64,000 nt of DNA from Haplodiscus bocki (taxonomy: Eukaryota): NCBI GenBank assembly GCA_965655095.1, contig OZ296651.1, positions 27,404,001-27,468,000 on the forward strand, written 5' to 3'. The position numbers were made by a program, and so were the translations under genes. Below, one piece after another: positions 18,417 through 32,448 of the stretch. Each line of letters starts with the position of its first letter. Positions within the stretch are counted from its first letter, which is position 1. The notes beneath the pieces are model-generated. The model did no database searches and was not told the origin of the DNA. It saw only the letters and a program-made list of their open reading frames with translations.

Positions 18417-18444
18417 ATGAAGCTGAAGACGAGTTTGGTTGCCT
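18417..18444 (+). CDS. Predicted env leader exon (MKLKTSLVA) ending at splice donor GTAAGT (18445)
   Basis: ATG AAG CTG AAG ACG AGT TTG GTT GCC T|GTAAGT. Phase 1 matches the acceptor ttttttttcAG|TG at 30121/30122 and gives the signal peptide MKLKTSLVALVTVLLAINVALP. Confidence 0.75.
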
Positions 18445-18722
18445 GTAAGTTTCACATTCGTTCTATTCCTAGAGAGTTTTAGAAGCAGTAAAATTGATAA
18501 TAGCGCTCAGATTGTTCTCAAACTGTTTGAAATCATCATCTTAATTGAAATCATCATTTTAATTCAGAGCGCCGAAGTAGTAAATTTATTTTGAGGTAGT
18601 AACTACTAAATTTCCCGTTTTTCTAAACTGATTCATTCCGTCATTCATTGTCTGTAATTTTTCGATCCGCTAAAATAAGCCCGTCACTCTTGAATTTTCG
18701 AAAACCTTGGTAATTCGCAAAA

Positions 18723-19970
18723 ATGGCAGCAGCAGCTCAATCGACAGTAAGCCTACCAAAATACGGCGGAAGTTCAACAGACAACTGGACAGATTTTGAA
18801 TCTTTATTCCGTAGCATAGTTGAAGTTACAGGAATTGCTGATGCACAACGAGTAGGATTTTTGAAACTACACTTAAAAGACTCAGCATTACAATTTTTCC
18901 ACACACTAGACCAAAATACCAGAGCAGACTTGGAATTAACAATAACAGCGTTGAAAAACCATTTTTGCAATCCAAACTTGAAAGAAATACATCATATAAA
19001 CTTGGAAAATATGAAATTTAATCACAAAACAGAATCACCGGAAGAATTTTTGGTCAAACTTCAAAATTTAGCTCTGAAAGCTTACCCAACACCAGCTGAT
19101 CTACCGCTAGCACCAGTAGATGCACATGTAGCAAATGACCAAGAAAGATTTGATCGTGAAACACGAGAAAATCAAAACAGACGGAATTTTTCACAAATGG
19201 AACGAGAAAGACATATAATTCGTCTCTTCAAAAAAGCAATGCCAAATTTTATCAGACTGAAACTGCTGGAAGAACCAGAAGATGCAACAATTCAAGAATT
19301 ATGCACAAAAGCAAGACAAAAACTGATTCTTAGAGAATTATGTCCAGTTGACGATTGGTCAAGAGACGGATTTAATGAGATGAGCTCTGAAAACTCAGAA
19401 AAATTTCTCACGGTTCTCACAAAAATGTCTGAAAATCAAAACTCCCTTGAAAACAGAATTGATGCCTTGACGCAAAAGCTTAATTCACCGCAACAAAATT
19501 CATCAAATACCTATAAAGACAACGAACAACAAACTTGGCAAGGGAATTTCAGAGGCCGACCGTACCAAAATAGAGGAAACCGAGGATATTCCAATAGTCA
19601 AGGATATCAAAATCGAAACTATCAAAATCAAGGATCGAATAATTATCAAAACAACCAAAATCGCGGCAGATATGGTAATAATTTCACTCGAGGAAGTTAT
19701 CGAGGGAGAAATAACTTTAGAGGCAATAATAGAGGAAACTTCTCGAATAACTATAACAATAATTTCAATGACAGCAATTTTCAGCAGCAAGGAGATCAAA
19801 ATAACGAAACAACAATAAATTCTGGAGGGCATATTGAAACCACTGCATTTTCACAAAAAGTTTGCTATAGTTGCGGATATCCAAACCATACCTCTCGAAA
19901 TTGTGAAGCTAGAGGAAAAAGCAGTACCAGAGGTGGACAAATACCGTTCAACTCGCAATCAAAAAACTAA
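18723..19970 (+). CDS. gag: Gag (capsid-like region, N/G/R-rich low-complexity tract, CCHC zinc knuckle)
   Basis: 415 aa; retrotransposon-gag-like N-terminus (W..F...F, L.L.DSA..F); CYSCGYPNHTSRNC knuckle. Confidence 0.92.
   Translation: MAAAAQSTVSLPKYGGSSTDNWTDFESLFRSIVEVTGIADAQRVGFLKLHLKDSALQFFHTLDQNTRADLELTITALKNHFCNPNLKEIHHINLENMKFNHKTESPEEFLVKLQNLALKAYPTPADLPLAPVDAHVANDQERFDRETRENQNRRNFSQMERERHIIRLFKKAMPNFIRLKLLEEPEDATIQELCTKARQKLILRELCPVDDWSRDGFNEMSSENSEKFLTVLTKMSENQNSLENRIDALTQKLNSPQQNSSNTYKDNEQQTWQGNFRGRPYQNRGNRGYSNSQGYQNRNYQNQGSNNYQNNQNRGRYGNNFTRGSYRGRNNFRGNNRGNFSNNYNNNFNDSNFQQQGDQNNETTINSGGHIETTAFSQKVCYSCGYPNHTSRNCEARGKSSTRGGQIPFNSQSKN
19961..19967 (+). promoter_or_regulatory. -1 ribosomal frameshift slippery heptamer A AAA AAC at the gag/pol junction
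   Basis: Immediately precedes the gag stop. The -1 frame is open from 19961 into the protease ORF (20132 frame). Confidence 0.8.
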
Positions 19971-29738: not shown

Positions 29739-29948
29739 CTACCAAAACTTGCATAGCCAAAACAGAAGGAGTAGCAGTCCCAGTGGCAGAAACAGTAGCA
29801 GCCAAGAATTGTCCCCGGCCTCTCCCACATCCGCGGTCTCCTGAGGCTGACAAAACGCCAGCACACGAGGGACACAGTGCTCTTCGACACAAGTTGAATC
29901 AGGGCAACATTGAACGGCCAGCCCCCGGACGATCTTTTGAATACACAT
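29739..29948 (-). CDS. Possible small Cys-rich membrane protein (69 aa)
   Basis: MCIQKIVRGLAVQCCPDSTCVEEHCVPRVLAFCQ...WLLLFLPLGLLLLLFWLCKFW: Cys cluster plus a C-terminal hydrophobic helix; no homology recognised. Confidence 0.35.
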   Translation of the reverse strand: MCIQKIVRGLAVQCCPDSTCVEEHCVPRVLAFCQPQETADVGEAGDNSWLLLFLPLGLLLLLFWLCKFW

Positions 29949-30121
29949 TTTGTTTGCGAACTCTGAAAAGCTCGGAATACCTTTTACACACATAAGCAAA
30001 ATCCAGCAAAAAACAAAACAAAAAAAAACAAAAACAAACATATTTCACAGCTGTCGTTTTTTTTCTCTTCCCTGACTCGCATAGTGACATATATGTTTCT
30101 TGAGCCACGCTTTTTTTTCAG

Positions 30122-32448
30122 TGGTTACTGTCCTACTGGCTATAAATGTCGCTCTGCCTTCATGGAATTCCGACATTATTGCTGATCAGGACTCTGGCGC
30201 AATCCTTGCAAATGGAATTATTTTCAATCATGTTACAAAAATTCTGTTAGCTGAAAAGTTTATCAACGTCGATTTTCTGGTCCCTTTTCCAAAGTTTGAA
30301 ATGAACGTGAGTGCTGAACTGAGCGCCTACATTAACAAACTTGCACCCCTATGGGACGCGTCTAGCTGGCAATGTCATCTTGATTACTCTACAAACTTTC
30401 AGAAAAATGATTCTACATTCGATATCGATTGGTTACTGCATCAAGTTGAGAATGAAGTTACACTTGCAGCGAAAGAACTAGAGGCTCTTCGCATATATAC
30501 TTCCTCATTCTTGAACACGGAAGACGCCACCGCTCAAAATCGAAATCGGAAGCCGAGGGCAGCGCCACTTGCAATGATGGCGCTCGCATCAGTCGGACTT
30601 TTTGGATCCGGAATAGCTTTAGGCAGCGGTAGCTGTGGATTCAGAGGTATTTTTGGATCATGTCATGATAGAGCAAAACAAAATGCAAAGAATATTGAAG
30701 AACTTGCCGAATTTACGGAAAGCCTAACGCAGGACGTTTTCAAATTACGAAATGAAGTGAATGACAAATTCTTCATGGTTACCACGGAATTAGAAGCACT
30801 TAAATCCGTCCAAAAGGAAATGCTTGAAGTCCAAAATCGTAACTGGAGAATTATCGAAGAGCACTTCGAAGTATTTCAACATAATATTCATGTACTACGA
30901 GATTGTGACCAACTTTTATTCTCAAGACAGCAAATTAATTTCAATTATGATACAATCTCATCGCTGCTTGCACTGACATTCGCAAACATCAAAAGTTATC
31001 GAGGCGCTCTTTACACTTACAAAATTAACATGATGAATTCGATACAGCCACTTCTGAATAACTATTTGCCAATGTCACTTGTTCCTAGACAAGCACTTCT
31101 AGCCATCTTAGATGATGTTGCATCGGAACAATGGAGAAAATCGGACCGACTCTCATTAGCTATACCAATGGATGAAATCATTGCTTATTACGAATCGCAA
31201 TTACTTAGAGATGTTTTAGTGGTTGAACAAGGACTCATAATGCGCATTGCAATTCCACTAGCAACGAAAGATTCAGCGTTCACGGTATTTCGCGCAATTG
31301 CAGTACCTATGCCTCAACCCGAACCAGATTTGGCAATCAAATGGAAATTAGAAGCGCCTTACTTAGCTATTTCAGAAAATAATAAAGAAACTGCATTTTT
31401 GACTGAATATGATCTTGGTAGATGCATTGGATCGTCACGTCATCAGATATGCCTAGACATGATTGCTACAGAAACAGGTCACGATTCCTGTTTGGCAACG
31501 CTGTACTTCAAAGATAGCGTGGCAGCATTACAAGTTTGTGAAACAGAGCAGATAGTATTGCCGGCAACAGAAAAAGCAGAAAACTTAGGTTATGGCGTTT
31601 GGCTTAAAACGTCTGCTACTACTGCTTATACTTTATTTGAATCAGACACAGAGTCAACTACATCATCCGGCATTGTTAAATATCCGGGATGTCGCATTTG
31701 TATAATAACATTGAAATGTGGTAAACAATTATCAGGAGACCATATAAAGATTCGGTCTGACCTTAGCACTTGTGAAGAACTGCCAGCGATTAAAGTAAAT
31801 GTTAAATTTCCAGACCCACTATTGGAATTGTGGAGTGAACTTCCTGAAATTGATGACATGCCTTATTATTCGACGAAAGCCGAAGCAGGAATAGCAATGT
31901 TAAAAGAAGTGCGAGAAACGCTACTTGATAGCCCTAAAATGCGCGACCCGAAAAAACTTTTGGAAATAGCACGCCCCATTACGACAAAAATGACGCAATT
32001 GCGTCCATCGCTCTCAAGGGAATTTGATTCCCATCTCTCTATCAGACACTCTCTCGTGATGAGCTTGATATCATTTGCTGGATCAATGTTGCTTCATGTA
32101 ATTGTTGTCTGGATTTATCATAGATATAAACATCGCAACAATGCGACGCCACTTTGGTGCGGATTATTCTGTCCGAAAAAATCTCGAACAGATGTTGAAC
32201 CCGAACAGTCAAACGAAACTCAACTTTCAGTTATAGATACTGCGCCCCGTGAATATTCTCAATTGGCTCGGACTATATCTCTCTCCCAGCAAACTCTCAA
32301 TAAAATCGAAACTGATGCAGCGACTGAAACACTTAAACGCACGATGTCGCACGCGTCTGCTCCTCAGCAAGCAGATACGCCTTACACCTATAGGGAAGCT
32401 GATGTGCCTGAACACTACAAGTCACACGGTGACATTCGTAGCGATTAA
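30122..32448 (+). CDS. env: Envelope glycoprotein, class I fusion protein (baculovirus-F/errantivirus/pneumovirus-F-like), main exon
   Basis: Hydrophobic signal segment, furin site RNRKPR (30541-30558) followed by fusion peptide AAPLAMMALASVGLFGSGIALG, heptad repeats, Cys-rich region, TM helix SLVMSLISFAGSMLLHVIVVWIY, cytoplasmic tail. No in-frame ATG before the signal segment, but a strong acceptor at 30111-30121. Confidence 0.9.

Follow-up and report, generated by a model that had tools for sequence, protein, structure and literature searches.

An env gene without an ATG before its hydrophobic N-terminus

How does an envelope gene begin its protein when no ATG precedes its hydrophobic N-terminus? 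The question is raised by a 15.7-kb Ty3/gypsy long terminal repeat (LTR) element at 17745-33488 of a 64,000-nucleotide stretch of the Haplodiscus bocki genome (GenBank assembly GCA_965655095.1, contig OZ296651.1, positions 27,404,001 to 27,468,000 of the forward strand), referred to here as the window. The env frame runs from stop to stop over 30088-32448 (786 codons). A first-pass annotation of the window had claimed that no ATG precedes the hydrophobic N-terminus of env, and this was borne out: the env exon has its first methionine only at residue 60, where no hydrophobic stretch follows (best 11-residue Kyte-Doolittle mean, 0.76), and an ATG at 30093 does not share the env frame in this copy. 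Our comparisons suggest that Env is very probably made from a subgenomic RNA produced by splicing; a leader exon of nine codons would contribute its start codon and the opening half of its signal peptide. The parts of this split start are as follows.

18417..18444 (+): coding part of the leader mini-exon, nine codons from the ATG (MKLKTSLVA) and one further base; predicted to encode the n-region and the opening half of the env signal peptide
18445..18450 (+): predicted splice donor, GTAAGT
18445..30121 (+): predicted intron of 11,677 nt, spanning gag, pol and cargo
30111..30121 (+): predicted splice acceptor, T8CAG (T8 at 30111-30118, CAG at 30119-30121)
30122..32448 (+): env main exon, with the remainder of the signal peptide, furin site, fusion peptide, F-protein-like ectodomain, transmembrane helix and tail

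Donor and acceptor are both in phase 1, since the leader gives nine codons plus one base and the env frame resumes two bases past the acceptor, with VTVLLAINVALP. The coordinates and readings first proposed (ATG at 18417, GTAAGT at 18445, T8CAG at 30111-30121 and matching phases) all hold. On a simple home-made consensus score, the donor shares first place among 435 GT sites, the other top-scoring GT site having no open phase-1 ATG, and the acceptor shares second place among 780 AG sites. A donor of such quality with an open phase-1 ATG appeared in 3.3% of 20,000 Markov-simulated leaders. The hydropathy of the predicted spliced N-terminus, with X at the junction, was 2.85, as compared with 2.54 for the env exon alone; the signal-peptide call was made from hydropathy.

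A donor lying within gag or pol could serve the same acceptor instead; splicing from within gag is published for the idefix subclade (PMC12992720). Candidate donors lie at 18747 in gag and at 22352 and 24965 in pol, and both pol sites have open phase-1 ATGs. However, the gag donor is in phase 0 from the gag ATG, and the pol donors have lower scores and no route to a capped 5' exon. We regard such a donor as very unlikely.

Conservation of the split start among close copies

A genome search gave 125 leader and 191 env candidates, of which the best 40 of each were scored; the counts for close copies (family A) refer to the 30 best leader loci and the 30 best env loci, the window included. The mini-exon was 28 nt long in 30/30 leader loci, with the ATG kept in 29/30, the GT in 30/30 and a stop in none, and residue 6 of the leader peptide was Ser only in the window copy and Ile in 29/29 other close copies. 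The acceptor CAG followed by TG was kept in 30/30 env loci. Frame-changing length differences around the acceptor occurred in 20/29 copies over the preceding 30 nt and in 0/29 for each of three following 30-nt windows, and thus coding constraint appears to start at the acceptor AG.

An alternative explanation is that the ATG at 30093 is the true env start, that the window copy has slipped in its T run and that the leader ATG opens an ordinary upstream open reading frame (ORF). The first-pass annotation had itself named T7 copies, with this ATG in frame, as the case that would speak against the splice. The T run before the acceptor was T8 in 14 of the 30 env loci, T7 in 6, T9 in 5, T10 in 2, T6 in 1 and interrupted in 2. 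The ATG was in frame and open in 3/6 T7 copies and in 5/30 close copies overall, and the database proteins P0015 and P0253 read through in this way. However, all 5 close copies have early env stops, and the ATG was in frame in 0/10 copies with env open for >625 codons; it also lies at a variable distance of 28-32 nt from the acceptor and is missing in several copies and in families B-D (see below). The T7 case thus mostly failed, a start at 30093 appears to be largely refuted, and we consider it highly improbable.

Intron-less (retrotransposed) env copies numbered 0 in an exact pattern search of the genome with one env subtype and zero mismatches, and 0/267 fetched database proteins (part of each cluster) begin like the leader exon. 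Among database proteins of these clusters, all those reaching the N-terminus (35/35) begin at a substitute codon or an upstream read-through. Four contig sets from one study cover the entire element and share the same rare joints, a DNA-like pattern that is uninformative on expression; in these contigs, the 18444/30122 joint was absent among the 15 joints listed (308 more), and no env-like loose end was among the 21 listed at the donor (1 more).

The split start in diverged families

Four sister families, of which the window's own is family A, have a leader mini-exon, with gag ~48-98% identical. The exon is 22 nt long in family B (gag 58-75% identical), 28 nt of different sequence in family C (gag 52-58% identical) and 43 or 34 nt in family D (gag 49% identical), the leader of which cannot be aligned to those of A-C. 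The differences among these lengths (28, 22, 28, 43 and 34 nt) are all multiples of three, and the length is 3n+1 in 74/77 copies of families A-D. ATG, GT, phase and absence of a stop were jointly kept in 56/77 copies (A 32/33, B 8/12, C 14/27, D 2/5), decay being common among the copies. Frame-changing length differences numbered 2/69 in the mini-exon, as compared with 227/1035 elsewhere in the leader. The leader peptides differ (MKLKTILVA, MNKLLAA, MQKAAVLLF, MVQGDILK...), mostly having Lys and then apolar residues. The rule-based best acceptor was in the matching phase in 29/30 close and 21/30 diverged env loci, where one third would be expected. Donor and acceptor are both kept in close siblings and in three diverged families, the latter being the more telling case; this check on sibling copies, proposed in the first-pass annotation, supports its suggestion that the env signal peptide would be spliced from the 5' leader. 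The leader count leaves out L076 (leader unrecovered, nearby insertion) and L088 (a stretch without gag, whose leader is that of L160); L090 coincides with L121 and L092 with L101, and the family D stretches L162-L164 had no env match.

The acceptor might also receive a trans-spliced leader ending in AUG, as flatworm spliced leaders do. An AUG end, however, gives phase 0 where the acceptor needs 3n+1, and the conserved mini-exon would be left unexplained. A trans-spliced leader is, in our view, exceedingly improbable.

Families with a self-contained env start

Families E, F and G, whose env is 35-42% identical to the N-terminal part of the window's, have an in-frame env ATG and a complete hydrophobic N-terminus in 10/10 loci (8/10 being family E), and the rule-based acceptor was in the matching phase in only 2/10. 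The family E leaders (L127, L129, L131, L133, L135, L137, L143, L145) are 1.07 kb long with a conserved GTGAGT donor, and an AG lies 25-40 nt upstream of the env ATG in variable phase; the leader of this family is likely spliced but non-coding. Family F has a 40-nt leader without a donor. Among database relatives, most of the 105 that are less than about 50% identical and include the N-terminus start with Met and a hydrophobic stretch, and those 72-98% identical start truncated, these starts being machine calls. A quick, midpoint-rooted tree of 56 rows places the 6 rows of the window's group (SH-aLRT 100) within the database relatives. Since the more distant families begin env with their own ATG and the window's group nests within these relatives, the comparisons tentatively suggest that the split signal peptide is a derived state. 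Split and self-contained signal peptides coexist in a single genome.

These families bear on a further explanation, in which env RNA arises from an internal promoter upstream of env, perhaps shared with a divergent antisense JmjC gene, and begins at a near-cognate start or in a short local exon. Such a promoter is used by the F-type elements Tor3b/4b of Oikopleura (PMC4402516). The JmjC ORF of the window element faces away from env with ~0.9 kb between them, the second env exon is hydrophobic by itself (2.54), and families F and G carry their own env ATG while the F leader has no donor, suggesting that the mode may exist in relatives. However, the env start has no ATG, no donor-like site in 29230-30100 has a phase-1 ATG that stays open, and an internal promoter leaves unexplained both the 3n+1 lengths of the leader exon and the onset of constraint exactly at the AG. 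We consider an internal promoter unlikely, and prefer the hypothesis that env is spliced from the leader mini-exon.

Several points weigh against the leader splice, which is deduced from comparison of sequences. The close copies are 93-100% identical and include some tandem duplicates, so that their counts are not independent events, and the length differences before the acceptor fall mostly within slip-prone T runs. An ATG at 18236, formed by the LTR end and the primer-binding site, precedes 18417 in the likely transcript and opens 27 codons (18236-18319; by eye). In the spliced Env, the distance from Met to a conserved motif is 40 residues, at the upper edge as compared with 22-39 in most relatives, and, as noted, donors within pol likewise have open phase-1 ATGs. 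Among the diverged env loci, 9/30 have the rule-based acceptor in another phase; family C has mostly a weaker GTTAGT donor and decayed copies, and family D contributes 5 leaders and 2 env loci, of which one env locus gave the wrong phase. The independent signal amounts to about three changes of exon length, for which chance would give 1 in 27, and the ATG anchors and family references were chosen by eye.

The Env protein and its proposed expression

In residues numbered from 30124, the furin site RKPR occupies 142-145 and is followed by the fusion peptide, and the transmembrane helix lies at ~642-666; R142 and R145 were unvaried across 37 sequences. Neither Pfam nor a sequence search of the PDB gave a match for env; Baculo_F of Pfam matched 2/37 relatives and not the window env. 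A structure model of Env from 37 relatives (pLDDT 72, pTM 0.59) had as its top Foldseek matches the F proteins of respiratory syncytial virus, Newcastle disease virus and henipavirus, with E-values of 2.7e-7 upward, low TM-scores (0.15-0.27) and long aligned lengths. As modelled, Env has a class I F-protein-like fold of the paramyxovirus/pneumovirus F type, and a protein of this fold needs a signal peptide, which in the window element would be whole only in the spliced product.

We propose that a single transcript starting in the 5' LTR has two fates. The unspliced form would be the genome and the gag-pol message, in which the leader ATG would open only a 21-codon upstream ORF; gag would be reached past the upstream ATGs at 18236 and 18417, and pol by what is likely a -1 frameshift where gag ends. 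Splicing of 18444 to 30122 would join the basic n-region to the hydrophobic remainder, and the resulting Env would enter the endoplasmic reticulum, have its signal removed, be cut by furin at RKPR and become a membrane-anchored class I fusogen. The output of Env would depend on splicing and be open to regulation by the host or the element.

Structure of the element

The remaining parts of the element, a young member of Ty3/gypsy whose env is of the F type, are as follows.

17745..18236 (+): 5' LTR of 492 bp, TG...GA, with TATAAA at 17998 and AATAAA at 18205
18237..18250 (+): primer-binding site, starting TGG
18723..19970 (+): gag, with a zinc knuckle and weak Ty3 capsid/DUF1759 matches
19913..25632 (+): pro-pol, with protease, reverse transcriptase (RT), RNase H, integrase and a C-terminal TARG1/OARD1-like macrodomain
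26067..27419 (+): three paralogous small ORFs with ATGs at 26067, 26499 and 27111 (101, 93 and 102 aa)
28102..29226 (-): antisense JmjC-like ORF of 374 aa, between the small ORFs and env
32986..32996 (+): polypurine tract
32997..33488 (+): 3' LTR, with 4 mismatches to the 5' LTR

The LTRs are 99.2% alike, and a 5-bp target-site duplication (CTTTT) lies on each side of the element. The paired LTRs, target-site duplication, primer-binding site and polypurine tract are those of Ty3/gypsy (Metaviridae), as is the pol domain order protease-RT-RNase H-integrase; among solved structures, RT best matched that of Ty3-G (E 7e-44), as compared with 4e-21 for the best retroviral one (foamy virus). The primer-binding site starts identically in all families and presumably resembles the 3' end of tRNA-Leu; a tRNA search of the 64-kb window found none. 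An A AAA AAC heptamer lies at the gag end, and protease is in the -1 frame relative to gag. Protease and RT are in separate frames in the window copy yet share a frame in 9/12 sibling stretches examined (of the remaining 3/12, one has no RT part and two are frame-shifted otherwise), and the window copy's pol thus appears broken. In this respect the window copy departs from F-type env errantiviruses. Extra ORFs fill the 4.5 kb between pol and env.

Ahead of gag, the unspliced RNA has two upstream ORFs, 18236-18319 (27 codons) and 18417-18482 (21 codons). A GCGCTC...GAGCGC motif pair behind the donor (18503-18575, +) recurs in families A-C. A packaging-signal hairpin in this position found no support: RNAalifold gave no consensus pairs (28 copies), the single-strand z was -0.36, and a hand-picked 6-bp helix, although 89.9% paired, was no better than shuffles (246/500).

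Cargo within the intron

The macrodomain at the C-terminus of pol (~25135-25530, +) is most like human TARG1/OARD1 (E 8e-26) and was found in 18/20 sibling stretches, including distant families. The three small ORFs are 27-31% identical to one another, rich in Trp and His and without a known family; a search of the ESM Atlas with a small cargo ORF gave no usable match. They were present in 15/15 sibling stretches of families A-C and 0/5 of E-G, being open in family A and represented by two or three paralogues in B and C. An AG acceptor-like site lies shortly upstream of each, in phase with the leader exon only for the third in family A and the first in family B.

The JmjC-like ORF has a His-x-Glu...His triad (H156, E158, H233) that is invariant in 17 sequences and predicted to bind metal, and its profile gave 0 matches in the PDB. 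It was found in 15/20 sibling stretches, has 141 genome matches and adjoins env in many families. Because an env ~93% identical to the window's can accompany a JmjC ORF only ~48% identical, swapping of the JmjC module between copies is suggested.

A broader scenario may be put forward, although we hold it to be doubtful. A non-insect errantivirus clade may independently have moved its signal-peptide start to a leader exon and become 'complex'. Its leader donor would then be joined, by alternative splicing, to env and also to small accessory genes, two or three in number, and the TARG1-like macrodomain of Pol and the antisense JmjC dioxygenase would act against ADP-ribosylation by the host and against silencing through RNA methylation or chromatin. 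No paper on macrodomain or JmjC cargo in LTR elements was found in the literature searched.

Comparison with known elements

Vertebrate retroviruses have a single LTR transcript with a donor in the leader and an acceptor before env, and the first env codons of avian ASLV come from an upstream exon. Unlike these viruses, the window element has an RT closest to that of Ty3 and an env of the F type. In the Drosophila iERVs ZAM and Beagle, env is joined by splicing to a short exon that encodes a peptide and lies ahead of gag (PMC12992720); the window element likewise has such a predicted exon ahead of gag, and its phase matches that of env. The ZAM/Beagle junctions were established by RT-PCR (PMC12992720), whereas that of the window element was derived by comparing copies. 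In contrast to ZAM/Beagle, the window element has an intron of 11.7 kb with 4.5 kb of extra genes, a pol that ends in a macrodomain and an env without a Pfam Baculo_F match. We propose that the element works like ZAM/Beagle and do not claim membership of their subclade.

Elements with F-type env are widespread in animals and have been described as 'ancient errantiviruses' (PMC13524379), with which the window element shares a gag-pol-env Ty3/gypsy structure, a paramyxovirus-like F env and many similar copies. In the main text of that paper, 'splic', 'macro' and 'accessory' occur 0 times. Its prefilters demanded a pol-env gap of <=1 kb and a region of <=10 kb, with later look-ups 3-5 kb downstream, and could miss a pol-env gap of 4.5 kb. 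The Tor elements of Oikopleura (PMC4402516) are, like the window element, non-insect LTR elements with env; env of Tor3a is spliced from a donor near the gag start, and Tor3b/4b have an internal promoter. Tor3a has non-canonical GA donors, whereas the window element has a canonical GT donor that would split the signal peptide; the env ORF of the window element is not self-contained.

The env mini-exon arrangement is a mechanism of a known kind, and what is new is the length of the intron, the lineage and the cargo within the intron. A description of this lineage was not found in the literature searched, which took in few subscription papers, and absence from print is not established. The env genes of such elements would be mis-annotated if the leader exon is ignored, and surveys demanding a complete env ORF near pol can overlook whole clades. 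A splicing-dependent Env would give the host a control point over infectivity, and the presence of two modes in one genome opens the switch between them to study. The importance of the splice is modest, and the intron cargo may be more interesting.

Other observations

Tandem arrays of fragments of the element family were observed at G000:C8:27574495-27601788 and G000:C1:187411778-187419116, in which a part of JmjC recurs every ~1.9 kb and a part of env every ~2.3 kb. The window also contains a second reverse-transcriptase element (8705-10838, -) with two ORFs (RVT_1, E 7e-25). Other features, in 35207-36740 (+), 48405-49511, 57025-57780 (+) and 61260-63998, are two duplicated C2H2 zinc-finger ORFs, a five-copy family of an 87-nt repeat, a phosphatidylserine synthase exon and a 2.16-kb tandem duplication.

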